Position numbers and translations under genes: made by a program. Positions 1,885 to 40,130 of a stretch of DNA of 48,000 bases are shown piece by piece. The notes under the pieces are model-generated. The model was not told the DNA's origin. It saw only the letters and a program-made list of their open reading frames with translations, and made no database searches. Source of the DNA: Leptolyngbyaceae cyanobacterium (GTDB lineage Bacteria > Cyanobacteriota > Cyanobacteriia > Phormidesmidales > Phormidesmidaceae). The stretch covers positions 53,601 through 101,600 of the forward strand of contig JBHJIL010000054.1 in the NCBI GenBank assembly GCA_050043465.1, in the 5' to 3' direction. Numbering within the stretch: the first letter of the stretch is position 1; every line of letters begins with the position of its first letter.

Positions 1885-4134
1885 TTAAACCTCCTCCAGC
1901 TGGCTAATAAAATCGTCTAGATCAGCTTGGCCCAAATCAGCATCGGGAAAATCTGATGGGGTAAAGCCACCGCTGTTGTCAGTACATTGGGCAATGAGAG
2001 ATTTCAGCGCACTCAAGTATTGATTTGCCAGTGTGGACAGGGTTTCTGAACGATGAATTTGGGTGTCATATCGCCAGTTTATCCGTAGCTGATCCTGCGC
2101 TATCCAAGCATTTATCTCTAGTGGGTAACTCCGTCGATTGCGTGAATCTCTCAAGGTACCAACATCGATGTCTGGAATAACTCTTAGGTCTCCGGTGGTC
2201 AAATCCTGTCGTCCAAGATAGTTAAACAACACTTCCGATGATTCTGCCTGAGACAGCTGCTGTCGGGTTGCATCCTCCCCCAGATATCGCAGCATACCGT
2301 AGCCAATTCCTCGGTTTGGCACCTGTCGCAGCTGTTCTTTAACAGATTTGAGGGTCGCGATAGAGTCGTCAGCATTGTCAACGTGTAAACTCACCGGATA
2401 GGTGGTCGTAAACCATCCCACTGTCCGAGACAGGTCAATGCCATCAGCAATCTGTTCTCGCCCGTGGGCCTCCATTTCTATGCGAACATTGCCAGCAGTG
2501 GTGCCTGACCATTGCAACAGCGTTTGGGTCAATGCTGTCAGCAGTGCATCGTTAATTTGGGTGTTGTAAACCGCTGGAACAGTTTTTAATAATGCCTCAG
2601 TATCCTCAGCGCTGAGGGTAACCGTCACGCTCTGGGTTGTGCCTTCCGTGGGTGGCGGTGTGTCTGAAAAATCACGCGGTAGCGCCATAGCTAGTTGCTC
2701 AGATTGAGCTATCCAGAAATCTAATTCAGACTCCCTTGTAGGCGTTTGAGAATTGAGAGTTTTGGCCCAAGTCTGGAAAGATGTGGTCTTCTCAGGCAGC
2801 TGTGGAGTCTCCCTTAATAAGCTGGAGAGATCATCGAGAAGAATCTGCCAGGAAACAGCGTCTACAATCAAGTGATGCAAACTTAGCAAAAGCCAGCTTG
2901 ACTGACCAGCCCCACGGGTGAATAGAATCGCTCCCATCAGATCCCCGTCAGCAAGGTTTACATTGGCATGCAAACGACTGCCATGGTCAGCAATAGCTTT
3001 TATCTGTTCAGATACTTCTAGATGGGAAAGATCAACTTGAATTACCTTGGGAGGACTGCCAGCATCGGCATTAATTTGTTGATCGTTGAGAAAGCGCATT
3101 CTTAGACCATCGTGGTGGGTCCACAAAATTGCCAGGGTTCTTTCTATTAAGGAATGCACACTTGAATAATCTACCGTTTCAATCGGCTCGACGATATCTG
3201 GTTCCCCTTTGCAAGGGGAACCGTCAGGGAGGGGTTCTCGGGATATAGCGCTATTGGTCGAAACCCCACCGCCTGCGGCACCTCCCCTAAGCCCTCTGGA
3301 CTGGCCTCGCCAACGCAAGGGGAGGACTTTTGCAGACATATTTTCTGACTGGGGGATTGTTTCTGGGTAATCACCTAATTTGTCAACCCCATCAGGAAGC
3401 TCTATCAGCATCGCCTGATGCCAGTGGTTGGGCACCTCCATTTCCTGTTCAAAGAACCAGTGCTGAATCGGTGTTAGCGGCACTTCTCCAGTCACTAAAT
3501 CCTGAGTGGCGGTTACTTCAGGTGCTAGATTTACCGCTGCCGCCAGCTCTGCCACCGTTGGATGCTCAAACAGTTGATTAGGTGCTAACCGCAGCCCCGC
3601 CTCCCGCGCCCGCGAAACAATTTGAATACTGAGGATAGAATCTCCCCCTAGCTCAAAAAAGTTGTCGTGGATGCCAACGGTGTCTAGCCGCAGTACCTCA
3701 CTCCAGATTTGAGCTAAAACTTGTTCTGCTGGTGTGCGGGGCGCAGCGGATGCACCCGTCATTGTCCCCACTAACTGGGGCTCAGGCAATGCCTTCGTAT
3801 CAATCTTGCCATTGGCAGTGCGGGGCATTTGGGCTAACGGCATAATCACCGCAGGCACCATATAATTTGGTAGCTTAGCCTTCAGCCGATCTCTCAGAGC
3901 ACTAACCTTCTTATCATCCGCCTTACCATCAGCCGACACCACATAGGCCACTAGCCGAGCAGAACGATTGGACGCAGCCAGGTTTAGCCGCTGTGCCAGG
4001 GCCTCACGCTGTTTGGGTGAGAACGCTTTAACTCGTTGATATAGTTCCTGGTTGGGTGCCATGACAAAATTCTGTGGACTAGTTCTTAGGGGTCTGAAGC
4101 GGAGGGACAGATTGTATTGATCATGGTGGCCCAA
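1885..4134 (-). CDS. NRPS protein made of an A-domain C-terminal subdomain (A9-A10 only), T and E domains
   Basis: The 749-aa ORF contains ARLVAYVVS...LPNYMVPAVIMPLAQMPRTANGKIDTKALP (A9/A10). The T domain is DNFFELGGDSILSIQI. E-domain motifs are PLTPIQHWFFE, HHLIVDAVSW, EAHGRE and TVGWFT. The track start is TTG 4134; ATG 4062 (MAPNQELYQRV...) is an equally plausible start. Motifs A1-A8 are absent. Confidence 0.85.
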   Translation of the reverse strand: MGHHDQYNLSLRFRPLRTSPQNFVMAPNQELYQRVKAFSPKQREALAQRLNLAASNRSARLVAYVVSADGKADDKKVSALRDRLKAKLPNYMVPAVIMPLAQMPRTANGKIDTKALPEPQLVGTMTGASAAPRTPAEQVLAQIWSEVLRLDTVGIHDNFFELGGDSILSIQIVSRAREAGLRLAPNQLFEHPTVAELAAAVNLAPEVTATQDLVTGEVPLTPIQHWFFEQEMEVPNHWHQAMLIELPDGVDKLGDYPETIPQSENMSAKVLPLRWRGQSRGLRGGAAGGGVSTNSAISREPLPDGSPCKGEPDIVEPIETVDYSSVHSLIERTLAILWTHHDGLRMRFLNDQQINADAGSPPKVIQVDLSHLEVSEQIKAIADHGSRLHANVNLADGDLMGAILFTRGAGQSSWLLLSLHHLIVDAVSWQILLDDLSSLLRETPQLPEKTTSFQTWAKTLNSQTPTRESELDFWIAQSEQLAMALPRDFSDTPPPTEGTTQSVTVTLSAEDTEALLKTVPAVYNTQINDALLTALTQTLLQWSGTTAGNVRIEMEAHGREQIADGIDLSRTVGWFTTTYPVSLHVDNADDSIATLKSVKEQLRQVPNRGIGYGMLRYLGEDATRQQLSQAESSEVLFNYLGRQDLTTGDLRVIPDIDVGTLRDSRNRRSYPLEINAWIAQDQLRINWRYDTQIHRSETLSTLANQYLSALKSLIAQCTDNSGGFTPSDFPDADLGQADLDDFISQLEEV
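3203..3349. mobile_element. MITE-like hairpin repeat inserted in frame in the E-domain coding sequence (extra coding block ~3175-3381)
   Basis: By eye it is ~75-80% identical to the reverse complement of intergenic 24089-24210. Shared blocks are tcccctttgcaagggga / tcccccttgtgaaggggga, ggtcgaaaccccaccgcctgcggcacctcccct / ggtcgagacccctctgcctacggcatctcccct, and aaggggaggacttttgcagacatattttctg / aaggggaggatttttgtagacactttttctg. It adds ~69 aa (LGDYPETIPQSENMSAKVLPLRWRGQSRGLRGGAAGGGVSTNSAISREPLPDGSPCKGEPDIVEPIET) that the paralogous E domain in the 1828-aa NRPS lacks. Confidence 0.7.
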
Positions 4135-5485
4135 TAGCTGCTAAGTGGGGATTGTCTTTCTGGGCAGACTGTCTATTTAGCAATGTTTCAACCACTTGGG
4201 CAGCGCGATTTTCTTGGTGGTAGTGGTGGATGCGATCGCACATCTTCCCCACCCTCTCCCGATAAGACTCATCAGCCAGCAACGTCTGAATAGAGCTACA
4301 GATCTCAGCCGCCGTCTCCTTCTCCCGCTCGCCCGCAATCCCTAACCCGTGATAAGCCACCCTGGCCGCATCGCCATTTTGGTCCGCATGTCCGAGGGAA
4401 TACACCAGCATTGGCACCCCCAGGTAAAGACATTCGTTAATGGTGTTAATGCCGCCATTGATGACAGCGCAGTCAGCGTGCTTGAGCACCTGTAACTGTG
4501 GCGTCCAACTAAAAGTATGGACATTGGCAGGCAGGGTTCCAAGCTGGTCAATCTCTAGCTGTCCGCCCAATCCCATAACCAAATCCCATTCAGGTCGGTT
4601 AGCAACAGCTTCCATAATCTTTTTTAACCAATGCTGGTTGCCTTTAGCAAAAGTGCTGCAACCGCAGTATATAAGCGATCGCCCCTGGGTAAGTCGCTTT
4701 TCAAAAAGCTGTTCTAAGACTTTGTGAGTATCTGTCGTAACCTGCGCCTCTTGGCGATTCTCATACACCATCGGTCCCACATAGTGCATCAAAGGATGGG
4801 GATCATGGGGAAAATCTAACTCCAGGGCATTAAAACAAAGGATGGGTAGCGTCCCCTGTCCATAGGGAATTAGCCATTGATTAAAGCCAAACTGTTCGGG
4901 AAACGGATAGCCAATCTGCCGAGCATAACAGCCCCAAACCGACCGTCTGTCCAGCCCCATCCGCTGCCAACGCTGTTTGAGCGCTTCTTTCCAAGTAGTC
5001 AAGCCGTTCTTCAGCCAAGCTAACTCAATGCCAAAGTCGCTATCCGGTAGAGTATGACTATTAATAGGAGGCAACCCAGGTCGTTTCCAGATGGACAGAA
5101 ACTGACATAGCAGCGCCATTGGCAGACCGCTCATTACCCCAGCCATAATGTGAGGCGTCATCTCCATATCGATTAGCACCAAATCCGGCTCAAGCGCTTG
5201 TATGGTTTGGGCAAAGCGATGCACACCCAGCTGATTCACTGCTTGCTGTTGTCGTTGCCGCAATGTCCACAGTTTTTTCCATCGCCCCATGGGTGGGTCA
5301 ACGGGCTGAATCACCCATGACTCTAGCTGAACATAGGGAATTCCCTGGGCCGTAACCGCATCTCGAAAGTCATAGGGACTGGCATAGGTCACCCGATGGC
5401 CAGCCAGCTTCAACTGTTGCACCAGTGCCAGACTGGCGTTAAAAATGCCTTTTAATCCTCCTGTGATACAAACAATGTGGGACAT
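4121..5485 (-). CDS. GT1-family (macrolide/UDP-glycosyltransferase-like) glycosyltransferase
   Basis: The N-terminus is MSHIVCITGGLKGIFNASLALVQQLKLAGHRV. The C-terminal nucleotide-sugar motif is VINGGINTINECLYLGVPMLVYSLGHADQNGDAARV. I prefer ATG 5485, which sits 2 nt after the methyltransferase stop (TAGCCATG), over the track start 5596, which would overlap the upstream gene by 109 nt. Confidence 0.8.
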   Translation of the reverse strand: MSHIVCITGGLKGIFNASLALVQQLKLAGHRVTYASPYDFRDAVTAQGIPYVQLESWVIQPVDPPMGRWKKLWTLRQRQQQAVNQLGVHRFAQTIQALEPDLVLIDMEMTPHIMAGVMSGLPMALLCQFLSIWKRPGLPPINSHTLPDSDFGIELAWLKNGLTTWKEALKQRWQRMGLDRRSVWGCYARQIGYPFPEQFGFNQWLIPYGQGTLPILCFNALELDFPHDPHPLMHYVGPMVYENRQEAQVTTDTHKVLEQLFEKRLTQGRSLIYCGCSTFAKGNQHWLKKIMEAVANRPEWDLVMGLGGQLEIDQLGTLPANVHTFSWTPQLQVLKHADCAVINGGINTINECLYLGVPMLVYSLGHADQNGDAARVAYHGLGIAGEREKETAAEICSSIQTLLADESYRERVGKMCDRIHHYHQENRAAQVVETLLNRQSAQKDNPHLAAIGPP

Positions 5486-5487
5486 GG

Positions 5488-6237
5488 CTAAGAGTCCCCC
5501 GTGCCAGAGTATGTGGAGTCTTTTGTAGGATCTTTTTGCGCAATCACACACAGATCCTCGAGGGGCATATTGTGGGTAAATGGGATGGAGGCCCAAGGGT
5601 CTAGCACATCTAACCGTCTGATATTTTTGAACCTGTTGACCTTTCGCAGCTGGTAGGTCAGTCCTTCGTAGTCATAGCTCCACTTGTGTACCTGTCCCGG
5701 ATCGTCAACAGGAGCATAGCCAAATTGATGGGCATGGAATGAAAACAGAAAGCTGGAGGGGGCATCCTTAGGGATTCTACGCTGAGCATAGTTAACGAAA
5801 TATCCCATGTGACGATAGTTAGTGAAATATCCGTTGATGTGGATGCGCAGGTCTGGAACCGTGAGCAATAAGTAGCCATCTTCTTTTAAAAGACTAGAAC
5901 AAAATTTCAACAGGTCTGTTCCGTCCTCAAAGCTAAAATGCTCAAACACATGCTGCAGTCTGACCAAGTCAAACTGCCCTAATTTCTCTCGGTCAGCATC
6001 TCCCAACTGGCCTATATTGGCTGAATAGTAGCGCTCAGCTAGATCCGGAGCCAGGTCCTCCCCTGAGGCTAGATCAAGACACATAAAGCCTTCTTCAAAT
6101 CGCCGACTGCCCATGTCCAGCCAACGGGTACGTCCTTCGCTGAGCAACTTCTTTTTTAGACCATTGCGCTCAATTCCCAGCTTTTTGAGAGCTCTGGCAA
6201 CGTTGTACTTAAGCCATGGTAGGTTTGCCATCATCAC
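5488..6237 (-). CDS. Class I SAM-dependent methyltransferase (stand-alone)
   Basis: Motifs are RWLDMGS (motif I-like), FDLVRLQHVFEHF and LKEDGYLLLTVPD. The start region reads GTG-ATG-ATG with GAGG upstream. A 55-nt spacer follows the upstream NRPS stop. Confidence 0.7.
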   Translation of the reverse strand: MMMANLPWLKYNVARALKKLGIERNGLKKKLLSEGRTRWLDMGSRRFEEGFMCLDLASGEDLAPDLAERYYSANIGQLGDADREKLGQFDLVRLQHVFEHFSFEDGTDLLKFCSSLLKEDGYLLLTVPDLRIHINGYFTNYRHMGYFVNYAQRRIPKDAPSSFLFSFHAHQFGYAPVDDPGQVHKWSYDYEGLTYQLRKVNRFKNIRRLDVLDPWASIPFTHNMPLEDLCVIAQKDPTKDSTYSGTGDS

Positions 6238-6292: not shown

Positions 6293-9031
6293 TTAAACAG
6301 TCTCCTCGATAGCCATTAACAAAGCTTCTGCCTGCTCAGGCTCTAAAGCTGCGAGGGCCGCCACTAGGCTATCTAGCTCGAATGCTGGCTGAGCCACTAC
6401 CACTGCCTCTTGCACACCCTCCTGTTCCCGCAGGGCATCCTCAATCTCCCCGAGTTCAATGCGATGACCCCGAATTTTAACCTGGCGATCGCAACGCCCT
6501 AACCATTCCAACAGACCATCAGCCCGATAACGCGCCAAGTCTCCTGTCTTATAAAGGTAGGGTGAGCACTGCCCACCATCCTCCGGCACAATAAACACCG
6601 CTGCCGTCTTCTCCGGCTGATTCAAATACCCCCGCGTCACCCCATCTCCACCCACATAGATCTCACCAACAGCTCCAGTTGGAACCAGCTGTAGATCCTC
6701 ATTTAGCAAGTAAATCTGAGTATTCGGAATCGCTCTACCAATAGCAACAGGCCCAGGCCTCAGCTCCGTCGGAACTCGGTAAGCCGTACACCACACCGTT
6801 GTCTCCGTCGGTCCATACTCGTTATACAAATCCGTAGCAGGCAGTTTGGCATAGTGTTGCTGTGCCAAACTACGAGGACAAGCTTCCCCCGCAACAACAA
6901 CCGTCCGCAGTGTTGATAACTGCTGAAGATTAGTAGACTCTAGCAGCAACGAATACAGTGTAGGAACACACAGCGTATGGGTAACTTTCTGCTGAGCAAT
7001 CAGGCTAGCCAGCTGATGCAGATCCTGTTCAATCCGCTCAGGAGGCAACACCAATGTTCCACCCTGACACAGCGTCCAGAAAATTCCAGCCACAGAGCTA
7101 TCAAAGGCAATGGAAGAGAGCAACAAGAATCGGCCAACCGGTTCTGGATAAACCTGAAATCTCGCCATCGTAGAATGCACCAAATTACGATGGCTGACCA
7201 TCACCCCCTTAGGCTGTCCTGTGGAACCAGAGGTGTAAATAATGTAGGCCAGATCGTCCGGTTGAGCAGGAGATACAGAAGACTCTAGAGACGGCTCTTC
7301 TGCATACTTCTCATCTAAATAAACGAGAGGAACAGACATTTCAGGTAAATTGACCGATCGCTGCGTCAACAACAGCTTTGGATTAGTATCCTCTAAACAG
7401 TAACTAATCCGAGCTGCAGGATAGGCAGGATCGAGGGGAACATAGGCAGCGCCAGCCTTAAACACCGCCAGAATACTCACAATGCGCTCCAACGATGGAT
7501 TCAGACACAGAGCTACCCGTTCACCAGGAACAACGCCGTGCGATCGCAACACACCAGCCAACCGTTCAGCCCACTGATTTAGCTCGCCATAGGTCAGCGT
7601 TTGCCCTTGAAACACCACCGCCGGAGCATCGGGTGTCTTATCCACCTGAGCTTCAATCAGCTGGTGAATAGTGAGATCATGGGGATAATCGATGCTATCC
7701 CAGATAGTTAACTGCTGTTGTTCTGCCGCTGTCAGTCGAGGTAGGTCAGTTAGTTTTGCCTGGGGTTGCTCAACAAAGGCCGTTAGCAACAGTTCGAGGT
7801 GGGCATGCAGGCGAGTAATTGTCTCCGCTTCAAATCGCCCTGAGTCAGACAGTAATATTAACTCTAGAGACTCGCCCGGCACCACTAAGAGAGCTAAGGG
7901 ATAGTTACTCTGCTCCAGGTAGCGAATCTCGTGGGTCTCAAATCCTAGATCAGTCGCCACCGCTGTTGGATAGTTTTCAAACACCACAATGCTCTCAAAC
8001 AGAGGACTGCCCTTAGGCAAATCACTCCAGCGTTGGATATCGGTCAGGGCTGTGGACTCATACTGTCGCAGTTCCAGAAGCTGTCGCTGTCGGTCCTGCA
8101 GCCAATCCACCAGAGGTTGCTCAGAGGCTATGTCTACCCGTACAGGCAACGTATTAATAAACAATCCCACCATGGTTTCCACACCGCTGAGGTCCGCCGG
8201 GCGCCCTGAAACCACTGACCCATAGGTCACCTGATTTTGACTACTGTAGTGGTTTAGCAACAGCGCCCATGCCCCCTGAACCAAGGTGTTTAACGTTAGC
8301 TGATGCTTCTGACCCAAGGTTTTTAAGGCTGTGGTTAAAGAGGGAGAGAGAGATTTAGATTGTTGCTGATAGTGCCCGGAACTGCCAATTTGGGCAGCGG
8401 GCAGCGGGGTGGGTTCTGCAAAGCCTTTTAGTTGATTGCGCCAGAAGGATTCGGCGGTGCTGAGATTTTGTTCTTGCTGCCAGGCGATGTAGTCGCGGTA
8501 GGGACGTATGGGAGATAACTGAGGAACGATACCTTGCTGCAGCGCTCCATAGTAAGTGAGCATGTCTTGCCAGATCAGGGGCAGCGACCAGCCATCAAAT
8601 AATAGATGGTGAGAACTCCAAATGAATTGCCAGGTGTCTTTGCTGAGGTGGATCAGGGTGAGGCGGAGAATGGGGGCTTGATCAAGGTTAAAGCCTTGGT
8701 TGCGATCGCACCCCAAAAACTCCTCTAGTTTAACCTTCTGTTCACCCTCATCCAAGCCACGCCAGTCCAGTAACCGCCAGGGCAGCTCCACCTGTTGCCG
8801 CACTACCTGCAACGGCTCGTCTAAGCCATCCCACAAAAATGCCGTGCGTAGAACCAGATGCCGTGCCAGAGTCTTCTGCCATGCCTGCTGTAACAGTTCC
8901 GACTGCAGGCGACCGCTAAGCTTACAGGTATATTGGTTCACATAAACCCCAGCTTGGGTATCTGCCAGGGTATGAAACAACATACCCAGCTGTGTGGGCG
9001 AAAGCGTATAAATATCAGCAACGTTTTCCAT
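6293..9031 (-). CDS. NRPS C-A protein whose A domain ends just after motif A8 (no A9/A10, no T)
   Basis: The C domain has MENVADIYTLSPTQLGMLFH and SSHHLLFDGWS. A-domain motifs are LTYGELN, AGAAYVPLDP, YIIYTSGSTGQPKGV, FDSS, NEYGPTE, GEIYVGGDGVTRGY, YKTGDLARY and GRCDRQVKIRGHRIELGEIE. It then reads ...VQEAVVVAQPAFELDSLVAALAALEPEQAEALLMAIEETV-stop (TAA 6295..6293). Confidence 0.9.
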   Translation of the reverse strand: MENVADIYTLSPTQLGMLFHTLADTQAGVYVNQYTCKLSGRLQSELLQQAWQKTLARHLVLRTAFLWDGLDEPLQVVRQQVELPWRLLDWRGLDEGEQKVKLEEFLGCDRNQGFNLDQAPILRLTLIHLSKDTWQFIWSSHHLLFDGWSLPLIWQDMLTYYGALQQGIVPQLSPIRPYRDYIAWQQEQNLSTAESFWRNQLKGFAEPTPLPAAQIGSSGHYQQQSKSLSPSLTTALKTLGQKHQLTLNTLVQGAWALLLNHYSSQNQVTYGSVVSGRPADLSGVETMVGLFINTLPVRVDIASEQPLVDWLQDRQRQLLELRQYESTALTDIQRWSDLPKGSPLFESIVVFENYPTAVATDLGFETHEIRYLEQSNYPLALLVVPGESLELILLSDSGRFEAETITRLHAHLELLLTAFVEQPQAKLTDLPRLTAAEQQQLTIWDSIDYPHDLTIHQLIEAQVDKTPDAPAVVFQGQTLTYGELNQWAERLAGVLRSHGVVPGERVALCLNPSLERIVSILAVFKAGAAYVPLDPAYPAARISYCLEDTNPKLLLTQRSVNLPEMSVPLVYLDEKYAEEPSLESSVSPAQPDDLAYIIYTSGSTGQPKGVMVSHRNLVHSTMARFQVYPEPVGRFLLLSSIAFDSSVAGIFWTLCQGGTLVLPPERIEQDLHQLASLIAQQKVTHTLCVPTLYSLLLESTNLQQLSTLRTVVVAGEACPRSLAQQHYAKLPATDLYNEYGPTETTVWCTAYRVPTELRPGPVAIGRAIPNTQIYLLNEDLQLVPTGAVGEIYVGGDGVTRGYLNQPEKTAAVFIVPEDGGQCSPYLYKTGDLARYRADGLLEWLGRCDRQVKIRGHRIELGEIEDALREQEGVQEAVVVAQPAFELDSLVAALAALEPEQAEALLMAIEETV

Positions 9032-12000
9032 TAGCCCTTACCTCCCATGCGATCGGCTTTATTGAGCAAGGCCGCTAGCTTATCGAGTTTCTTGCTGTTG
9101 AGCTTGGCCAATGGAAAGTCTTCTACAGTTGTCTGATCGCCTGGTCCTTCTAGCAGGGTTTGCAGGTGTAGCATCATGCCATCGGCCAGTGCCTGCACCG
9201 TGGCCTCATCTAGACCGCTGTAGCTCCAGTCAATGTGGAGGTGGCCATTGCTGATAAAGGCACCGATTTCTAGGGGATGCGACCTTATCTGTAGCGGACT
9301 GCGCGACACTTGTAACGGCTGGGCAAACCGAAACATCGACGTAGGCGGCAATAGCTGTTCTAAAGTACCAAGATAGTTAAACAAAATCTCAGGCTGGCTG
9401 TGCTCGGCGATAGTCTCTCCTTTGAGATAGCGTAAAATACCATAGCCAATACCATTATTAGGAACCTGCTGCAGTGTGTGTTTTACTGCTCGCAAAGCCT
9501 CATTGGGAACAGTATCCACCTCAAATGTGACTGGAAAGAGAGAGGTAAACCACCCAACGGTGCGCACCAGCCGACGATTGGGCACCATCGCCTCTTCGCG
9601 TCCATGGCCCTCTAACGCCACCTGAACAGTGTGCTGTCCAGTATGCTGCTTGACCGCTAAGGCCAATGCCGTTAACAACAGTTCCTGGGGGCGGGCACGG
9701 GTTGCTTGCAAAAATGTCTGGGTTAACTCGTAACTCAGCTGTCGAGAAAGTGTGGACGCACTGGCCTCAGTTTGAGCTTCAACACCAAATTGCACTAAAG
9801 CCTTAGCCTGAGACCGCCAGTAGTCAATTTCTGACTGAGAAAGCGATACCTCATTAAGGCCGTCAGCCCATGCCTTAAACGAACTGGTTTTGAGGGGTAA
9901 GGAAAGGGACTCTTGCTGACTTAGTTGTTGATACGCCGTTTCCAAATCTTGAATCAGCGTTAGCCAGGAAAGTGCATCCACGACTAAATGATGAATCACC
10001 AAACCTAGCTGCTGCCGATCGCCCAAATTAAACAAGGCTGCCCTAACCAAATCTCCTGTTGCCAGGTCAAGCTGGGTTTGCAAACCGGCAATAGTGTCAG
10101 TAATTATTTGCTGTGACCGAGCGGACGCATCCACCTGCACCAAGGTGACATTAGTAATAGGGGCACCATAGTACTGTTGCCAGCCGGTCTTTGTTTGGGT
10201 ATAGGTCAGGCGCAAACTATCGTGATGGTTTACCAGAGCAATTAAAGCAGCTTGTAAAACTGAAGGTGTCAATGTCTCGGCCACATCTAACACCACCGTC
10301 TGGGTAAACTGTTCTGGCTGTGGTGAGCGCTGTTCGAAAAATGCTTGTTGAATCGGGGTGAGGGGGACTGTACCGGTCAAATCTTCTGGCGCTAATTCCA
10401 CATCGGGTGCCACCACCACCGACAGCTGTGCCAGGGTAGGATGCTGAAAAATCTGGTTGGGGGACAGGTTAAAGCCAGTCTCCGATATGCGAGCCGCAAT
10501 CTGGATGGCCATAATCGAGTCGCCGCCCAGCTCATAGAAGTTGTCGTGAATGCCGATGCGGTCCACCTTAAGCACCTGCTGCCACAGCTTCGCCAAGGTT
10601 TTCTCCACAGCCGTTTGGGGAGCAACAAAGGCAGACTGCAGTTCTGGACGAGTCTCTTGGGGATCGGGCAGAGCAGCAAAATCAACTTTGCCGTTGGCGG
10701 TCAGCGGCATCTGCTCCAGCTGCATAAAATAGGCGGGCACTAGATTGCCGGGCAGTCGCTGAGTTAGAAAGGTTCTCAAATCCGTTAGCGAGACAGTTCC
10801 GACATAGTAGGCTGCCAGCTGGGCTTTGTTAATTTGCTGGTCCTCGTAGCCAATTTCGCGCAAAATTCTCTCCACCTCAGCCACATCAATCTCATCATTG
10901 AGTTCATCAATGGCAGCTTCTGGGGTTTTATGGCCCATGCGCACATCCCAGCTGTAGGGTAAGGCATAGTTGTGGTAACCCCGCTTTTTGGTGTGCAGGT
11001 GAATACCGACATTGTTGATCAAGCAGTTGGTGGAACGGCCCGTATCCGATGGGCGAATCCAGGGCACCTGCTCCGTCAGAAAGCTGAGCATCTCCGCCAG
11101 CTCTACATCGCAATAGCGATAAAAATCCAGAATTTCGACTTTTTCAAAAATGTCGTCAGTTTTAAAGATATCCACATCCATCAGTCGCGACACAGCATCA
11201 TCAGCGCGGTGATAGGCTTTACGGGCATCTAAAATGGTCTCGTCAATCTTGTTAACGTCAAACTCATCTTGACCAAACAACTCAGTAAACCATTCTTCCG
11301 TCAGGCGGGTTTCAAAAAACTGGCCCCGTGAAAGACCGGTGACAATGCAGGGAATCCCCATCCCATAGGCCAGCTGCATACTCAAGGTGTAGATTGTCTT
11401 AAAGCAGCCGTTGCACACATTACAGTGGCGATTCAAACTGTCGACAAAAATGTCGTTCATCGCCGGGGTAGTGCCAAACTGATGATCCACACCCAGGGTG
11501 CTGACCACACGACGAATGTTGTCCTTCGCTTCTTCCGAGATGTAGCCGTTATCCAGGGTAAAGGCAATCACTTTAAAGCCCATGGGCACCAGCTGGGCCA
11601 GGGCATAGGTACTGTCCTTACCACCGCTAAGCAGCATCATGCAGTCATAGTCACCCTGCTTACGCTGTCGGGCGTTGTCTAAACGAGACTTGAATTCGTC
11701 GATGGATTTGAAATATTGTTCGGTGCGATCGCAATAGGTCTCATAGGTCTGACAAATATCGCACACCCCATCGTGGTCAAAGGTGATGCCAGGGTAGTTG
11801 GAGGCGATCCCGCAACGAGTACAGTAAGTAACCGGGCCGGTCTGTGGGGGAGCCGTCGCCTGAATTAGATTGACAGCGCTGGCACTTACCTCAGGATGAG
11901 CTACCAGCGCCGCTTCAATTTCTCCTAGCTCAATGCGAGTCCCGTGGATTTTCACCTGTCGGTCTCCGCGACCCAGATAGGTGAGCTGACCGTTTTCCTG

Positions 12001-14517
12001 CCAGCGACCCAAATCGCCTGTGCGATAGAGCCTTTGATCACCGCGATAAACAAATCGTTCTGCCGTTAGCTCCGGGCGGTTGAGATAGCCCCGCGCTAGC
12101 CCCGGACCACCAATAAAAATTTCACCCACCGATCCTTGAGGCACCAGGTTGAGATGCTCATCCAAGAGATAAATCTCGGCCCCTGCCGCTGGTTGACCAA
12201 TGGAAACAGACGTAGGGGCATCAGGCTCAAGTTTAAATCGGTGAATCATGCAGCCAACGGTGGCTTCCGTGGGACCATATTCGTTATAAATTTCAATGGG
12301 ATGGTCGCTGGCATTTGCGATCGCACCCGCCAATGATGTCTTTAGATCTTCCCCACCTAAAATCAGGGTTTTCACCCGAGAACCCAGGGCCATTCCCTGT
12401 ACCAGGGCCAGGTGAGAGGGGGTCAGCTTAATCACATCCACTACATTTTCTTCAAAAATGCGCTGTAGTGAGAGATCGATTGCTCCACTTTCTTCTGGAT
12501 AGATAACAACCTGTCCACCAGACAGAAGCGGCACATAGATAGAGGTGACCGTGAGATCAAAGGTAAACGGAGAGAACAGAGGAAAAGCTAGCGTTCTACC
12601 TCGCACATAGTGATGAATGGCCCAATGCACATAGTTTGCTAAACTCCGATGTTCGACCTCCACACCTTTTGGCTGACCAGTGGACCCCGATGTATAGAGC
12701 ACGTAGGCCAGCTGATTGATGGTCGACGGAGCATCTGGATTGCTATCTGACTGCGCGGTTAAATCTAGCCGATCAAGCAGCACAATCTTAGTCGCACCCT
12801 TCAAACAGTCGGCGACCGCTGAATGGGTCAACACCCAACGGGTCTGGGTATCGTTCACAATGTGGGCAATGCGCTCCCCAGGATGACTGGGATCAATGGG
12901 CACGTAGGCCCCACCTGCCTTGAGCACCCCCCAAATCGCCACTAACATCTCAATAGAACGGCGTAGACAGATGCCGACAGGGGTTTCAGTCGTTACCCCC
13001 TGCTGGCGGAGATAGTGGGCCAGTTGATTTGCCTTAGCGTTAAGTTGCCGATAGGTGAGGGTTTCGCTTTTGCATACGATCGCAACAGCGCTCGGTGTCC
13101 GCTGCACCTGGACCTCAAACTGTTGTACGACAGTCTCACTAACGACGAAATTGGCATTAGCTTCTTCACCCTGCGCCAACGCCATCAAGTGAGAACGCTC
13201 TGCTTCCGGAATAATATCCACCGTCGCAATCGGCTGGTCAAGATCGGCTAATACCGCATCCACCAGGGCTAAAAAATGCCCCGGAGCCCGTTCCTGTAGC
13301 TCTGGCTCAAACAGATCACAGTTAAAATCAAAATGTAGCTGTAGGCTACCTCGATCATCAAAGTCATGCACCTGCAGTCGCAAATGGTGACGCGGATCGC
13401 CCGCCCCAGGATGAATCCATTCTGAATGGACAGCATGACCATTAAAGCCTGACAGTTTAGCGTGGATAAAATTTAAGACCACATTGACATCACGGCTAGG
13501 GGCAAACTGGCTTGCACCGGGTTGGGCGTAGCGCAACAGACTCCCGCTGGCCTGATTTACTTTATGCAACAGCGAAGTAAATGTTTCTCCCAATTCAATG
13601 TCCACCTGCAATGGAAACAGTTCGATAAAGACACCAATTGTTTCCTTTAAAATCGCTGTAGGGCGACCATGGGCCGGGGTGGTGAATGCCACTTGATGGC
13701 GACCGCTAATGCGATGGAGGTAAACCAACAGAATACCGGCCACCAAGTTAAATAGAGACAGCTGGGGTGTCAATGCCTGGGCTGCCGAGGTCGTTGCCAA
13801 CTGCTTCAGTGCGGCCGTTCTGGCTGGACCTAGCTCGCATGAAACGCGGCGAGTACGAGAAGAGACTTGATTGGCCGAGCGCTGGTAAAGCTCAACTGAG
13901 TTGGCCTGCTGTTGCTGCCAGTAGTTAATCGTCCGTGATGAGGGTGATGGTAACGAAATATCACTGTATGCGGGTAACGCCGGAGCATCTGACAACGTAC
14001 CGGCAATCGAACGCTGATAGAAGTCTCCCAGAATCTGATAAATTAGCTGAACCGACTGAATATCCGTAATCAGATGGTGCTGATTTATATACCAGGCATA
14101 GCAGTCGGCACTTAGACGAATCAGGGCAGTGTCAAAAAGTCTTTCGGATAAATTAAACAGGGTTTGGCTACGATTCTCTGCCCAAGACCTGGCCGCTGAT
14201 GAGGGATTCTCTTGATCGCTAAAATCGAGTATTGGTACCTCACAGTCCATGGCACGCAATATCCGCCGCTGGGGCACACCGTCCACTTCTTCAATCACCA
14301 TGCGTAGCGTATCACTACGCTTCACCAAAATCTGAAATGCTGCCTGAAAATGGACAGGCTCAATCTCACCCGATAGCGTGAACAAAAACGCCATATTGTA
14401 CAGTGGCGAGTCCGATGCCAGCTTTTGCCCTAGCCATAACAGGTGCTGTGCCGTGGTCAGATTAGACTGGGCCGCTAAATTGTCAGGAGATTGAGTTGGC
14501 GATGCAGCAACGGTCAT
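9031..14517 (-). CDS. NRPS C-A(interrupted by PP-loop domain)-T-E, 1828 aa
   Basis: The C domain carries HHLITD (nt 14079..14062). A-domain motifs are LTYRQLN, AGGAYVPIDP, YVLYTSGSTGQPKGV, FDLT, NEYGPTE, GEIFIGGPGLARGY, YRTGDLGRW, GRGDRQVKIHGTRIELGEIE, then (after the insert) LVPAYFM and NGKVD. The T domain is DNFYELGGDSIMAIQI (nt ~10500-10526). E-domain motifs are PLTPIQQAFFE, HHLVVDALSW, EGHGRE and TVGWFT. Its stop overlaps the next start (TAATG at 9029-9033). Confidence 0.9.
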   Translation of the reverse strand: MTVAASPTQSPDNLAAQSNLTTAQHLLWLGQKLASDSPLYNMAFLFTLSGEIEPVHFQAAFQILVKRSDTLRMVIEEVDGVPQRRILRAMDCEVPILDFSDQENPSSAARSWAENRSQTLFNLSERLFDTALIRLSADCYAWYINQHHLITDIQSVQLIYQILGDFYQRSIAGTLSDAPALPAYSDISLPSPSSRTINYWQQQQANSVELYQRSANQVSSRTRRVSCELGPARTAALKQLATTSAAQALTPQLSLFNLVAGILLVYLHRISGRHQVAFTTPAHGRPTAILKETIGVFIELFPLQVDIELGETFTSLLHKVNQASGSLLRYAQPGASQFAPSRDVNVVLNFIHAKLSGFNGHAVHSEWIHPGAGDPRHHLRLQVHDFDDRGSLQLHFDFNCDLFEPELQERAPGHFLALVDAVLADLDQPIATVDIIPEAERSHLMALAQGEEANANFVVSETVVQQFEVQVQRTPSAVAIVCKSETLTYRQLNAKANQLAHYLRQQGVTTETPVGICLRRSIEMLVAIWGVLKAGGAYVPIDPSHPGERIAHIVNDTQTRWVLTHSAVADCLKGATKIVLLDRLDLTAQSDSNPDAPSTINQLAYVLYTSGSTGQPKGVEVEHRSLANYVHWAIHHYVRGRTLAFPLFSPFTFDLTVTSIYVPLLSGGQVVIYPEESGAIDLSLQRIFEENVVDVIKLTPSHLALVQGMALGSRVKTLILGGEDLKTSLAGAIANASDHPIEIYNEYGPTEATVGCMIHRFKLEPDAPTSVSIGQPAAGAEIYLLDEHLNLVPQGSVGEIFIGGPGLARGYLNRPELTAERFVYRGDQRLYRTGDLGRWQENGQLTYLGRGDRQVKIHGTRIELGEIEAALVAHPEVSASAVNLIQATAPPQTGPVTYCTRCGIASNYPGITFDHDGVCDICQTYETYCDRTEQYFKSIDEFKSRLDNARQRKQGDYDCMMLLSGGKDSTYALAQLVPMGFKVIAFTLDNGYISEEAKDNIRRVVSTLGVDHQFGTTPAMNDIFVDSLNRHCNVCNGCFKTIYTLSMQLAYGMGIPCIVTGLSRGQFFETRLTEEWFTELFGQDEFDVNKIDETILDARKAYHRADDAVSRLMDVDIFKTDDIFEKVEILDFYRYCDVELAEMLSFLTEQVPWIRPSDTGRSTNCLINNVGIHLHTKKRGYHNYALPYSWDVRMGHKTPEAAIDELNDEIDVAEVERILREIGYEDQQINKAQLAAYYVGTVSLTDLRTFLTQRLPGNLVPAYFMQLEQMPLTANGKVDFAALPDPQETRPELQSAFVAPQTAVEKTLAKLWQQVLKVDRIGIHDNFYELGGDSIMAIQIAARISETGFNLSPNQIFQHPTLAQLSVVVAPDVELAPEDLTGTVPLTPIQQAFFEQRSPQPEQFTQTVVLDVAETLTPSVLQAALIALVNHHDSLRLTYTQTKTGWQQYYGAPITNVTLVQVDASARSQQIITDTIAGLQTQLDLATGDLVRAALFNLGDRQQLGLVIHHLVVDALSWLTLIQDLETAYQQLSQQESLSLPLKTSSFKAWADGLNEVSLSQSEIDYWRSQAKALVQFGVEAQTEASASTLSRQLSYELTQTFLQATRARPQELLLTALALAVKQHTGQHTVQVALEGHGREEAMVPNRRLVRTVGWFTSLFPVTFEVDTVPNEALRAVKHTLQQVPNNGIGYGILRYLKGETIAEHSQPEILFNYLGTLEQLLPPTSMFRFAQPLQVSRSPLQIRSHPLEIGAFISNGHLHIDWSYSGLDEATVQALADGMMLHLQTLLEGPGDQTTVEDFPLAKLNSKKLDKLAALLNKADRMGGKG
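10822..11870 (-). other. Embedded Cys-ribbon + PP-loop (adenine-nucleotide alpha-hydrolase) domain inside the A domain, between A8 and A9
   Basis: Motifs in order are CTRCGIASNYPGITFDHDGVCDIC, YDCMMLLSGGKDSTYALAQL (SGGKDS at nt 11628..11611), FTLDNGYISEEAKDNIRRVVSTLGVDH, CNVCNGC and IVTGLSRGQ. The block is flanked by ...VSASAVNLIQ (after A8) and AQLAAYYVG (before A9). Confidence 0.7.
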
Positions 14518-14519
14518 GA

Positions 14520-14759
14520 TTACAGGCTCCGCTTAGCAAGATAGGCATCAATGGCCTTGATGGTTCTAAAGTTGGTGATGGTGATATCCGACTGGGGTAC
14601 ATCACAGCCAAATTTGTCTTCCACAAAGGCAACCAGCTGCATTACCCCCATGGAGTCGAGAATCTCTTCACCGAGAAGATCGTCGTCAACGTCCACCTGC
14701 ATCCGACCATTGAGCAGGGTTTGGCTAATGTACTGTTTTAAAATTTCTGGGGTGTCCAT
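14520..14759 (-). CDS. Stand-alone acyl/peptidyl carrier protein
   Basis: The protein is 79 aa with LGEEILDSMGVMQLVAFVEDKF (DSxG phosphopantetheine-site-like Ser). Its stop lies 2 nt before the NRPS start at 14517. It overlaps the upstream adenylase gene by 22 nt. Confidence 0.8.
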   Translation of the reverse strand: MDTPEILKQYISQTLLNGRMQVDVDDDLLGEEILDSMGVMQLVAFVEDKFGCDVPQSDITITNFRTIKAIDAYLAKRSL

Positions 14760-16345
14760 GCCGTTGTCTCCGCTTGTTGTTGTAATGCGTTGCGATCAAT
14801 TTTGCCGGTACCGGTTCTAGGAAAGGTGGTTGCGATCGCAATCCGTTTAGGCACCGCATAGGCTGGCAGCCGTTCTCCCACGTAGTTCAGCAGGTCCCCC
14901 TCGGTTAAGCTCGCCTCTTTAGTGAGAATCACCGCCGCCTCAACCTGGTGACTACCGGCCTCAGCGGCCACGCCATAGGCCGCCGCCTCTTCCACCTGGG
15001 GATTTCCCACCAGGGCAGCCTCCACCTCATCTAGCTCAATCCGATAGCCCCGTGCCTTAATCTGTCGGTCTTTGCGCCCCACAAACTGGTAGTTCCCATC
15101 CGGTCGCTGCTGCACCAAATCTCCTGTGCGGTAAAACACGGCGGTTTGGTGGGCAATTTCAGTACGATAAAAAGCCTGCTCGTTCAAACTAGGCCGCTGC
15201 CAATAGCCTGCCATCATAGTCGGTGTCCGCACCAAAAATTCCCCTATCTCTCCAGCAACAATGGGGTTGTCCTGATCGTCGAGCACCATCTCTTCGGCAT
15301 TGGCCCAGATGCGACCGATGGGGGCCACCTCGTCAGGCATCGCCTGGCCTGGCTCCAAGGGGGGAACATGATAATAGCTGCACTGATTGATTTCTGCAGG
15401 CCCATAGACATTGCTAAACCGGGCCTGGGGCAGTCGTTCCATCAGCCCATACATATACTTAGCCGGGTAGGGTTCTCCACCAAACAATACCCAGCGCAGT
15501 GAACTTAAATCTCTCTCGTCTAGCACTCCCCGCAACAGCAATTGAATCAACGCAAAGGGAACCGAGTACCAGATGGTAAGGGCTTCATCCTGAGCTAACT
15601 GGGAAAGACTGGCCGGTATTTTCAGATAGGCCTCGGAAATAATCACCGTTGTTGCCCCCACCAGCGGCCCTGAGAAATAATCTAGGGTGGACATGTCAAA
15701 GTGCAGTGGCGAGTGGTTACCCAGACGATCGGTATGGGTGAGACCGTAGGTGTGGGCCGCCATCCGCGCATAGTTGAGACCGCTGCGGTGGGTGTGCATA
15801 ATCCCCTTGGGGGTGCCAGTGGAGCCCGAGGTATACATGATGTAGGCCAAATCTTGTTCCATCCAAGTTACGGCTGGCGATGTATCACTGGGGGGAATAT
15901 CTGACCAGTCGCAGCGGCTGATGTCGGGCTGTTGCTCCAGAGTAAACTGCTCGGGTAAACCAATCACACAGGTCAATTCTGGGGTCGCATCCAACAGGTC
16001 CGGTAGCCGTCTCCGCTTTGATTTTTGGGTAATTAGGTGGCGGATACCGCAGTGGTTAATGGCATAGGCGGTACGGGCAATAGGCGCACCCGGATCGAGC
16101 GGTACATAGGCCGCACCGGCTTTCCAAATGCCGTAGTTTGCGATCGCACTTTCTAAACACTTACCCAGTTAAATCCCGACGCCATCTCCCCGCTTTACCT
16201 CCAGCTCCACCAGCCGCCCGGCAAATCCGTTGGCCCGACGCAATAAATCACTATAGGTCAGACCCTCCCCGTCCCAGCGAAAACCTTCACGCTCAGGAAA
16301 CCGTTCCCCGGACCGACCTAACATTTGAGACAACAAATAAATCAT
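14738..16345 (-). pseudogene. Stand-alone adenylating enzyme (DltA/type II A-domain-like) interrupted by one in-frame TAA at 16171..16169
   Basis: The track ORF (14738..15994, TTG start) lacks motifs A1/A2. Upstream in the same frame I read MIYLLSQMLGRSGERFPEREGFRWDGEGLTYSDLLRRANGFAGRLVELEVKRGDGVGI-TAA-LGKCLESAIANYGIWKAGAAYVPLDPGAP... from ATG 16345, which is preceded by AAGGAGGAG. The stop sits where GI-Y-L is expected. Downstream motifs are YIMYTSGSTGTPKGI, NVYGPAE, YRTGDLV, GRKDRQIKARGYRIELDEVE and TGTGKIDR. Confidence 0.7.
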
Positions 16346-16357
16346 CAGGTCTCCTCC

Positions 16358-17506
16358 TTACAGCCCCAACGAACGGGCGATAATGTTGCGCTGAATATCC
16401 GAGGTGCCAGCATAAATCACCCCACCAATAGCATCCCGCAAATCTCGTTCCACTTCATACTCCGTGAGATAGCCATTGCCCCCATGGATGCGCACCGCAT
16501 CTAACCCCGAGGCCACAAAACACTCGCTCAAATACAGTTTGAGCAGGGCCGCCTCCAGCATCGCCGGTTCACCTCTCTCCTTTAACCAAGCGACCTTATA
16601 GAGCAACAGCCGCGCTGTCTCCAGCCGTAGTTTCATATCAGCCACCCGATTGGAAACCGACTGAAACTTACCAATGGGTTGACCATACTGTTCTCGCTGA
16701 TTGGCATACTCAATGGTTTTCTCCAGCTGACGCTCCATGGTGCCCAGCTCACTGGCCAGGTTAAAACAACGGTCATATTCCAACGAACTGTGGGAAAAAC
16801 TAAACCCAGCCCCCTCTGGTCCTAGACGATTATCTTCAGGTACAAAACAATCCTCAAAGAAAATCTCACCAAAGGGCACCGTGCGCAGCCCCATTTTGTC
16901 TTTAACCGGGCCAGTGGAAAACCCCGCCGCTGTCCGCTCTACCAAAAATGTTGTCACCCCCCACTTACCTAAGCTCGGATCAATGGTGGCAAACACCAGC
17001 GCTAGGTCACAAATAGGTGCACAGGTAACAAACTTCTTGCGGCCATTGAGGCGATAGCCACCGTCACACTTTTCGGCATGGGTCTTCAAGCTATACACAT
17101 CGGAACCTGCGTTAGGCTCAGACAGAGCATGCACACCGATCCACTCACCGCGACATAGCTTTGGCAAGTATCGCTGCTTCTGATCTTCTGTGCCAAACTG
17201 CTGCAACAGAATCTGGACGGTCCACATTTGGGCATTAAGACACAGGGTCAGGCCATTATCCTCACAGCCATAGCCCAATGCTTCCATAGCCAGTACCGCC
17301 GTCATAATGTCCAAGGCTGGCGCACAGCTATAGTCTTCTGGCACCCACAAGCCCTGAATGCCAAGGTCAGCACATATTTTCCAGTTTTCCCAGGAAAATA
17401 TGCCCTGGTGCTCGCGCTCAAACATGTCACCATTCAGGTTCTCATGCGCAAACTGAATGACGCGATTTTTGAAAACAAGTTGTTCGTCTGACCAGGAAAA
17501 ATCCAT
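16358..17506 (-). CDS. Acyl-CoA dehydrogenase family flavoenzyme (likely acting on a carrier-bound substrate)
   Basis: The protein is 382 aa with typical ACAD features along its length (MDFSWSDEQLVFKN..., GVHALSEPNAGSDV, IHGGNGYLTEYEVERDLRDA, IYAGTSDIQRNIIA). It sits immediately upstream of the adenylase/carrier pair. Confidence 0.85.
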   Translation of the reverse strand: MDFSWSDEQLVFKNRVIQFAHENLNGDMFEREHQGIFSWENWKICADLGIQGLWVPEDYSCAPALDIMTAVLAMEALGYGCEDNGLTLCLNAQMWTVQILLQQFGTEDQKQRYLPKLCRGEWIGVHALSEPNAGSDVYSLKTHAEKCDGGYRLNGRKKFVTCAPICDLALVFATIDPSLGKWGVTTFLVERTAAGFSTGPVKDKMGLRTVPFGEIFFEDCFVPEDNRLGPEGAGFSFSHSSLEYDRCFNLASELGTMERQLEKTIEYANQREQYGQPIGKFQSVSNRVADMKLRLETARLLLYKVAWLKERGEPAMLEAALLKLYLSECFVASGLDAVRIHGGNGYLTEYEVERDLRDAIGGVIYAGTSDIQRNIIARSLGL

Positions 17507-17532
17507 TATTAGGTTTGAGGGCGCAGGAATAA

Positions 17533-23829: not shown

Positions 23830-23848
23830 GAGGTGAGGCATTACAATG

Positions 23849-24070
23849 GTGGGTTTTGATCACTCGCGCCAACGATCAACCCACCTCGCCTACGGCACTC
23901 CTCCCAGGAGGAGAGAAACACACTTGCGAATATTTAACACCTTTCTTTGAGGCCAAGCCGGACTCTCTTTCCCCTCTCGGGAGAGGCTCCGGGGTGGGTT
24001 TCGATCACTCGCGCCAACGGTCAACTCACCTCGCCTACGGCACTCCTCCCAGGAGGAGAGAAGAATGCCT
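23849..24070. repeat. Two direct copies (~77 bp, period ~145 bp) of a hairpin-containing short repeat
   Basis: Copy 1 (23849-23925) is gtgggttttgatcactcgcgccaacgatcaacccacctcgcctacggcactcctcccaggaggagagaa. Copy 2 (23994-24070) is gtgggtttcgatcactcgcgccaacggtcaactcacctcgcctacggcactcctcccaggaggagagaa. Each contains the perfect stem ctcctcc-ca-ggaggag. A further hairpin (cctctc-gg-gagagg) lies between the copies. Confidence 0.85.
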
Positions 24071-38817: not shown

Positions 38818-38818
38818 A

Positions 38819-40099: not shown

Positions 40100-40130
40100 G
40101 AACGTATAAACCCGATACAACCTAGCTAAA

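Follow-up and report, generated by a model that had tools for sequence, protein, structure and literature searches.

A 48,000-nucleotide stretch of contig JBHJIL010000054.1 (assembly GCA_050043465.1, positions 53,601 to 101,600; hereafter the window) from a Leptolyngbyaceae metagenome-assembled genome (MAG) encodes a nonribosomal peptide synthetase (NRPS) whose adenylation (A) domain is interrupted by a block of about 350 amino acids. We find that this insert is very probably an AMDH (aminomutase/amide dehydratase) domain, that is, an in-cis tailoring enzyme from the branch of PP-loop ATP pyrophosphatases that resembles the N-acetyl sugar amidotransferases (NASATs), lodged in the hinge loop between motifs A8 and A9 of its host. 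It is an uncharacterized addition to a known family, and it has the architecture that is commonest there, with the AMDH-bearing module standing in line.

The gene lies on the minus strand at 9031..14517, as do all of the features described for it below, and encodes 1828 amino acids; an exact-sequence look-up of the translation returned MGD1855935.1, from a Leptolyngbyaceae MAG. Pfam recognized two Condensation domains, an AMP-binding domain (amino acids 467-812), a PP-binding domain (1307-1366) and a weak QueC match (959-1030). An N-terminal condensation (C) domain, found with Pfam and NCBIfam (13168..14460; approximately amino acids 20-450, with HHLITD at 147-152), precedes the large N-terminal part of the A domain (11872..13140). 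This part carries motifs A1-A8; its match to TIGR01733 runs from amino acid 488 to 882, and A8, GRGDRQVKIHGTRIELGEIE, spans amino acids 849-868. The insert then occupies amino acids 883-1232 (10822..11871). Beyond it, the A domain resumes with its small C-terminal part (10633..10821), which comprises A9 (LPGNLVPAYF, amino acids 1255-1264) and A10 (NGKVD, amino acids 1275-1279, with the catalytic lysine present). Motifs A3, A5 and A7 were located as well, and the A motifs are intact on both sides of the insert. Next comes the thiolation (T), or carrier, domain (10420..10599), corresponding to the PP-binding match; the serine in the GGDS of its GGDSIMA motif (amino acids 1331-1337) would be the attachment point of the asparagine that AMDH modifies. 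The last domain (9130..10374; amino acids 1382-1796) is called Condensation by Pfam itself, but we take it to be an epimerization (E) domain because PLTPIQ, HHLVVDALSW, EGHGRE, RTVGWFT, GIGYG and FNYLG correspond to the published NRPS core motifs. The overall organization is thus C-A[AMDH]-T-E.

A preliminary description of this DNA had reported an Asn-code A domain that is interrupted after A8 and resumes at A9, the inserted block having a cysteine ribbon, an SGGKDS loop and a CNVCNGC cluster. All of these are present, on the minus strand, and the motif positions bear out the nesting. The start that it gave for the insert (10822) stands, and the end (11870) falls one base short of the in-frame boundary. 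It also sized the NRPS correctly at 1828 amino acids, although it left the last domain, which by its motifs is the E domain, unnamed.

To which family does the insert belong? A BLASTP comparison with the AMDH domain of CysH, whose reference sequence was taken from the Source Data of PMC7966384, gave 179 identical residues out of 341 (52%), with 71% positives and an E value of 4e-137, over insert residues 6-343. Full-length similarity, placement at A8/A9 together with a T domain, an Asn code in the host and the SGGKD motif are all found here, and they indicate membership of the AMDH type. Among the AMDH “core regions” of PMC7966384, the comparison covered SGGKD (“core region 1”), the six others being given there in a figure only. 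Like the insert, the AMDH domains of CysH and AlbIV are about 340-350 amino acids long, follow A8 of an A domain with the code DLTKIGEVGK and are succeeded by A9/A10 and a T domain; CysH also shares SGGKDS, the tetracysteine motif, CxxC and DTGRSTNC. In an alignment with the N-terminal ~400 amino acids of AlbIV and CysH (AlbIV being compared for the A-domain code only), the ten residues of the code, DLTKIGEVGK, are identical in all three proteins; the Stachelhaus positions were assigned through the GrsA numbering. The same code had been read by eye beforehand. The host A domain is predicted to be Asn-specific.

Profile searches and structural modeling placed the insert more broadly. The NCBIfam model TIGR03573 (WbuX, N-acetyl sugar amidotransferase) matched it end to end (profile positions 2-325 of 344, E = 2.7e-34). 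Pfam QueC scored 23.9 bits (cut-off 22) and covered profile positions 2-73 of 210 only, while TIGR00364 (QueC) scored 22 bits against a cut-off of 150; Pfam QueC and ThiI both match the PP-loop region. An AlphaFold (AF2) model built from 51 sequences had a predicted local distance difference test (pLDDT) score of 91.5 and a predicted template modeling (pTM) score of 0.90. When this model was submitted to Foldseek, the top match in the PDB was the Legionella NASAT 8wex (E = 2e-11, template modeling score about 0.55), and the next were TtuA, carbapenam synthetase/AsnB, LarE and QueC, all of which are PP-loop ATP pyrophosphatases. In a profile search of the PDB, the SGGKDS of the insert (11611..11628), which is predicted to bind ATP's alpha- and beta-phosphates, aligned on the SGGxDS of NASAT, LarE, GMP synthase and QueC. 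The NASAT family is defined by SGGXDS and CXXCXn[GN]XCXXC, the latter of which binds Zn in 8wex (PMC10607449). A counterpart of this second motif is present in the insert as CTRCGIASNYPGITFDHDGVCDIC (11752..11823; CxxC-x16-CxxC with G-x-CxxC), a Zn site predicted from homology to LpNASAT. Its four cysteines, C17, C20, C37 and C40 of the insert (CTRC...DGVCDIC), are invariant in 51 homologs, as are the PP-loop and about 60 further positions. These results agree with the preliminary description, which had seen in the insert a PP-loop enzyme (an adenine-nucleotide alpha-hydrolase) of the NASAT (WbuX/WbpG) type with SGGKDS as its pyrophosphate loop: TIGR03573 and 8wex support that kinship, the alignments support that role for the loop, and matches to PP-loop families (TIGR03573, Pfam QueC and ThiI) are indeed nested in the A domain.

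The resemblance to QueC is limited to the nucleotide-binding N-terminal third of the insert, the Pfam QueC match extending over the 72 residues that follow the PP-loop strand. QueC and ToyM have in common with AMDH that they are PP-loop ATP pyrophosphatases and that the net reaction is an ATP-driven conversion of an amide intermediate to a nitrile. The reaction of QueC, however, begins with ammonia and the carboxylate of a free deazapurine, and its Zn site is C-terminal, in place of an N-terminal ribbon.

The kinship with NASATs raises another question: could the insert be a true amidotransferase, which would consume ATP and ammonia to furnish an amidine side chain (2-amino-3-amidinopropionate)? 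The nearest curated family and the nearest solved fold are indeed those of N-acetyl sugar amidotransferases. The PP-loop and the Zn-type tetracysteine motif are both in place, and the insert and NASATs (WbuX/WbpG/PseA) have in common SGGKDS, the overall fold, a “YDC” before the PP-loop and the CxxC...C cysteines, which a bona fide NASAT also carries. Yet the TIGR03573 score, 119.1 bits, is far under the curated cut-off of 203.2. NASATs are free-standing, act on the N-acetyl group of a sugar (a secondary amide), obtain ammonia from HisH/HisF-like partners and yield an amidine, whereas AMDH domains are fused into an NRPS A domain and act on the primary amide of a carrier-bound amino acid with no ammonia donor. 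A true NASAT locus (L085) has hisH and hisF directly downstream; the insert is not a free-standing, glycan-cluster enzyme with such partners, and no HisH/HisF-type ammonia-donor gene was found in the 48-kb window. Moreover, the characterized members of the subfamily make a nitrile or isoasparagine. We regard an amidotransferase as very improbable.

The AMDH family has a history of its own. It was named and characterized by Gross et al. (Nat Commun 2021; PMC7966384), who described a domain of 38 kDa, bearing the ATP motif SGGKD, within the Asn-activating A domains of AlbIV (albicidin, from Xanthomonas albilineans) and CysH (cystobactamid, from Cystobacter velatus), noted “numerous” homologs in Asn-specific A domains and called the mechanism unknown. 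CysH prefers Asn as its substrate. In vitro, it produced a shift of -18 Da with L-Asn, corresponding to beta-cyano-L-alanine, only when AMDH was present; on deletion of AMDH, all isoasparagine- and cyanoalanine-linked cystobactamids were lost, and isoasparagine in vivo needs the domain (PMC7966384). According to papers that cite them, Baumann (2014) and Cociancich (2015) had already noticed the domain in CysH and AlbIV, respectively, and a 2022 review terms it the “alpha-ANH-like domain”. The tailoring domains known at a8/a9, as Labby et al. (2015) are cited in PMC8949500, are methyltransferases, ketoreductases, oxidases and monooxygenases. Such interrupted A domains resemble the one in the window in that a tailoring domain in the a8/a9 loop acts on the residue loaded by the host; they differ in that their inserts use S-adenosylmethionine or redox chemistry, while this one belongs to the ATP-dependent alpha-hydrolase superfamily. 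The claim in the preliminary description that no PP-loop insert was known at this site arose because the class is absent from older review lists. It was to be given up if the architecture proved to be characterized already, and with the domain seen in 2014-2015, characterized in 2021 as AMDH and later reviewed, it does not survive. A literature search turned up nothing more recent on how AMDH works or on any product from cyanobacteria.

We judged how AMDH domains are arranged from genome loci and from an exhaustive search of representative sequences; the loci were used because our first listing of homologs was biased toward short, contig-truncated proteins. A scan with one genome per species found AMDH loci in at least 541 species genomes, from Cyanobacteria, Bacteroidota, Actinomycetota, Acidobacteriota, Planctomycetota, Chloroflexota, Pseudomonadota and others. 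In the best 80 of these loci, reading frames typically place ~880-1000 amino acids (C-A) ahead of AMDH and ~155-200 (A9/A10-T) after it; approximately 15 of the 80 have ~600-650 amino acids after it (T plus an E/C-type domain), like the NRPS in the window. Stand-alone A-AMDH-T proteins like CysH were few among these 80, and came from Microvirga and Mesorhizobium. The exhaustive search (1.84 billion representatives) yielded 581 clusters at E <= 1e-30, in which the position of the domain followed the same pattern. Most AMDH homologs are therefore in line, as C-A[AMDH]-T.

Close relatives of the NRPS exist in other cyanobacteria. The acyl-CoA dehydrogenase encoded nearby falls, at >=90%, into one cluster with WP_023070730.1, a protein of Leptolyngbya sp. 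Heron Island J. In that genome the gene order is the same and a syntenic NRPS of 1824 amino acids is 82% identical to that in the window. The 25 closest AMDH homologs listed in PMC7966384 include WP_023070733.1 from Heron Island J. We infer that this is the ortholog of the window NRPS because its accession number comes three after that of the dehydrogenase, which matches the gene order. A free-standing relative of 323 amino acids was also encountered on a Bacillus thuringiensis HD1002 plasmid (NZ_CP009349.1, 8001..8972; locus L086), with 27.5% identity over 96% of the query. It is annotated as a 7-cyano-7-deazaguanine synthase, and it has an acyl carrier protein on one side and two adenylate-forming enzymes, carrier proteins and ketosynthases on the other; it may be a counterpart that acts in trans, with a substrate bound to a carrier.

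Has the domain in the window remained functional? It might be an inactive or purely structural relic, in which case the module would simply incorporate (D-)Asn. The AMDH reaction can be skipped, as the Asn-linker congeners that cystobactamid producers also yield (PMC7966384) demonstrate, and a starter gene of the present MAG contains a premature stop (see below). On the other hand, the catalytic-looking motifs are all intact and invariant, the flanking A-domain motifs are likewise intact, and the AF2 model is confidently folded. Furthermore, the dN/dS of the insert relative to four related cyanobacteria is 0.03-0.06 (dS being near saturation), which represents strong constraint on the insert among these organisms. 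We therefore consider a relic improbable and proceed with an active AMDH domain.

The genes upstream of the NRPS bear on its substrate. Four genes, all on the minus strand, span 14520..18636: a carrier protein of 79 amino acids (14520..14759), a stand-alone, prolyl-type A domain (14738..16345), an acyl-CoA dehydrogenase homolog resembling prolyl-carrier-protein dehydrogenases (16358..17506) and an ornithine cyclodeaminase (17533..18636). Among NCBIfam models, the dehydrogenase best matched those of the L-prolyl-carrier-protein dehydrogenases PigA (391 bits) and RedW (359 bits), with neither score reaching its cut-off. An ornithine cyclodeaminase, an A domain, a carrier protein and a prolyl-carrier dehydrogenase together constitute the classical route to a pyrrole-2-carbonyl-S-carrier starter, and this is the predicted product of the cassette. 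From the gene order, the N-terminal C domain of the NRPS is expected to couple the modified Asn with the pyrrole-2-carbonyl starter.

A course of reaction can be proposed on this basis. The A domain, judging from its motifs and code, would adenylate L-Asn and load it onto the adjacent T domain. By analogy with CysH, the AMDH domain would then act in cis on the carboxamide of Asn-S-T, dehydrating it to beta-cyano-L-alanyl-S-T and/or isomerizing it to isoasparaginyl-S-T. Chemically, ATP bound at SGGKDS might activate the amide through its oxygen, forming an O-adenylyl (or phosphoryl) imidate. A primary amide thus activated would lose AMP and a proton and so become the nitrile, while a true NASAT would add ammonia to a secondary amide to give an amidine. 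Activation by ATP to an imidate, from which a primary amide can go on to the nitrile, is a proposal credited to Cociancich et al. for albicidin. The upstream C domain would acylate the residue with the pyrrole-2-carbonyl starter, and the E domain would invert it to the D configuration before the chain passes to the next module.

If the domain is active, comparison with CysH makes the nitrile somewhat the likelier product, with isoasparagine not far behind. CysJ is the partner that steers CysH toward isoasparagine; the nitrile is favored here because CysH alone dehydrates Asn in vitro and because no TauD/SyrP-type (CysJ-type) beta-hydroxylase gene was found in the 48-kb window. The preliminary description had envisaged three outcomes. 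Conversion of an amide to a nitrile, in the manner of QueC, accords with the -18 Da shift obtained for the family. Amidation of Asp to Asn is unlikely because the A-domain code is that for Asn and CysH prefers Asn, and conversion to an amidine is unlikely as well, since the window lacks HisH/HisF-type donors such as those found with a true NASAT. Isomerization of Asn to isoasparagine, the second documented AMDH outcome, was missing from that list.

Several points weigh against this scheme. CysH and AlbIV, the two characterized examples, are stand-alone A-AMDH-T proteins that depend on a shuttle: their product is handed over (by CysB) to a module of the assembly line whose own A domain is dead, and their partners are a beta-hydroxylase (CysJ/AlbVIII) and an O-methyltransferase. 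The NRPS in the window, by contrast, is in line, has no hydroxylase gene within the 48 kb and belongs to an apparently pyrrole-primed cluster that lacks para-aminobenzoate chemistry. A stand-alone module, a CysB-type shuttle and CysJ/CysQ partners were thus not found here, although these are features of the two characterized pathways rather than of the family; no in-line C-A[AMDH]-T-E member has been tied to a product. An identity of 52% to the CysH domain leaves room for a changed reaction outcome. The choice between nitrile and isoasparagine cannot be read from the sequence: a cysJ deletion strain made Asn, isoasparagine and cyanoalanine linkers alike (PMC7966384). Even for CysH, neither ATP dependence nor the O-adenylyl-imidate step has been demonstrated (PMC7966384). 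Finally, the starter A gene contains a single in-frame TAA (16169..16171; ...GDGVGI*LGKCLES...) at a point where A domains normally hold a residue. The gene is intact (533-546 amino acids) in L006, in the cultured filamentous cyanobacterium LEGE 11480 (L081; GCA_015207035.1) and in Heron Island J (L084). The stop reflects either a nonsense mutation that this population carries or a mistake in the assembly, and the pathway copy in this MAG may accordingly be impaired.

The cysteines of the insert beyond the tetracysteine motif deserve separate scrutiny. Within CNVCNGC, the CxxC formed by C153 and C156 (CNGC; 11404..11415) is invariant, and so is Cys283 in DTGRSTNC (11023..11025), a candidate third ligand of a CxxC...C tri-Cys site. 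All three residues are invariant in 51 AMDH sequences, and also in a four-sequence alignment of the insert, the CysH AMDH domain, the free-standing Bacillus relative and a bona fide NASAT; the first cysteine of CNVCNGC is not conserved and is a serine in CysH. The combination of SGGXDS with CXXC-C is the signature of tri-Cys PP-loop enzymes that bind a [4Fe-4S] cluster (PMC9283937), and it is present in the insert. In the PDB profile search, the CxxC aligned on that of the [4Fe-4S]-binding LarE of M. maripaludis (8cnz). TtuA and the LarE proteins of Thermotoga and Methanococcus resemble the insert in SGGxDS, in CxxC with a distant cysteine, in a second-tier fold match and, for TtuA, in an N-terminal cysteine ribbon.

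These parallels could be taken to mean that the insert is a sulfur insertase like TtuA or LarE, with a tri-Cys [4Fe-4S] cluster delivering sulfide to yield thioasparagine (a thioamide). SGGKDS together with an invariant CxxC...C is the combination that defines the Fe-S sulfur-transfer PP-loop enzymes, the CxxC aligns with 8cnz, TtuA is among the next-best fold matches, and CysH was dark brown when purified, which its authors took to suggest a metal cofactor (PMC7966384). TtuA and LarE insert sulfur, however, while AMDH domains and NASATs have no known sulfur chemistry; the same cysteines occur in NASATs, which perform nitrogen chemistry. Cystobactamids and albicidin contain no thioamide, the shift produced by CysH is -18 Da and not +16 Da, and neither a cysteine desulfurase nor a sulfur-carrier gene was found in the window. 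Of all the readings weighed here, sulfur insertion is the least credible. For an AMDH domain that acts on the amide of Asn, the invariant tri-Cys motif and the brown color of CysH nonetheless suggest an Fe-S site. Carried further, and as a tentative idea that we hold to be possible but rather doubtful, AMDH domains (perhaps NASATs generally) would hold a TtuA/LarE-like [4Fe-4S] cluster through C153, C156 and C283 beside the PP-loop, with the open iron site binding the Asn side chain and selecting between nitrile and isoasparagine. If so, the cluster would account for the brown color of CysH, and the “unknown mechanism” of AMDH would gain a concrete form. The conserved motif thus offers a testable idea for that mechanism.

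Downstream of the AMDH-containing gene, also on the minus strand, the cluster continues with a C-A(A1-A8) protein (6293..9031; 912 amino acids, ending just past A8), a methyltransferase-like gene (Methyltransf_23-like; 5488..6237), a GT1/MGT-like glycosyltransferase gene (~4121..5485), an A(A9/A10)-T-E protein (1885..4062) and an A-less C-T module (2..1882) that is cut off by the window's left edge. In the next module, the A domain is therefore divided between two proteins at the A8/A9 hinge, and a pair of tailoring genes lies in between. This gene order is complete in L001, L006 and LEGE 11480; in Heron Island J, the sequence ends inside the C-A(A1-A8) gene, and the order is visible up to that point only. 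It looks unusual for an A domain to be split naturally and to have tailoring genes between the two halves. We considered and rejected the notion that the methyltransferase is a fissioned M-domain insert, given that all 76 of the 76 homologs found are free-standing proteins of about 150-270 amino acids. In LEGE 11480, two tandem C-T-TE proteins (L081, 14225..19828) likewise lack an A domain; the carrier domains of the A-less C-T and C-T-TE proteins must be loaded in trans. The locus of Adonisia turfae CCMR0081 (L002, 12853..16421) is uninformative on the split A domain because its second NRPS gene stops in the A domain (at about position 101 of the AMP-binding profile) and is directly followed by part of a Tex-like gene. 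In this close relative the cluster is thus broken: it lacks the genes for the methyltransferase, the glycosyltransferase and the A(C-terminal)-T-E protein, while the AMDH-containing gene is intact.

Some further features of the window were recorded in passing. Compared with its L006 ortholog, the A(A9/A10)-T-E protein has an in-frame insertion of ~70 amino acids near the start of the E domain (~3171..3381, minus strand, within the open reading frame 1885..4062; GDYPETIPQSEN...GSPCKGEPD). It holds a short perfect hairpin (3200-3222); a search for repeat or miniature inverted-repeat transposable element features found no other copy in the window. Two 70-nucleotide direct repeats, 96% identical and 145 nucleotides apart (23848..24062), lie just downstream of an AraC-type regulator gene, and the internal repeats at 25196..26983 belong, as expected, to the WD40 region of a gene for a STAND NTPase of 1341 amino acids. 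A polyamine cassette at 37744..40120 (minus strand), unrelated to the NRPS cluster, pairs an arginase-family gene with a fused S-adenosylmethionine decarboxylase/spermidine synthase gene; the reading frames as listed overlap by ~120 nucleotides.

As a discovery, the interrupted A domain is of small value: descriptions of the A-[PP-loop]-T architecture date from 2014-2015, and in 2021 it was biochemically characterized and shown to be widespread. Its practical value is as a lead for genome mining, for in-line AMDH modules are as yet without a linked molecule. To our knowledge, nonribosomal peptides bearing a nitrile or isoasparagine are rare. The cultured relative LEGE 11480 carries the complete cluster. 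If the proposed course of reaction is correct, a peptide from marine Leptolyngbyaceae that contains pyrrole-2-carbonyl-D-(beta-cyanoalanyl), and is possibly glycosylated, would be the first compound to be assigned to an in-line AMDH module.

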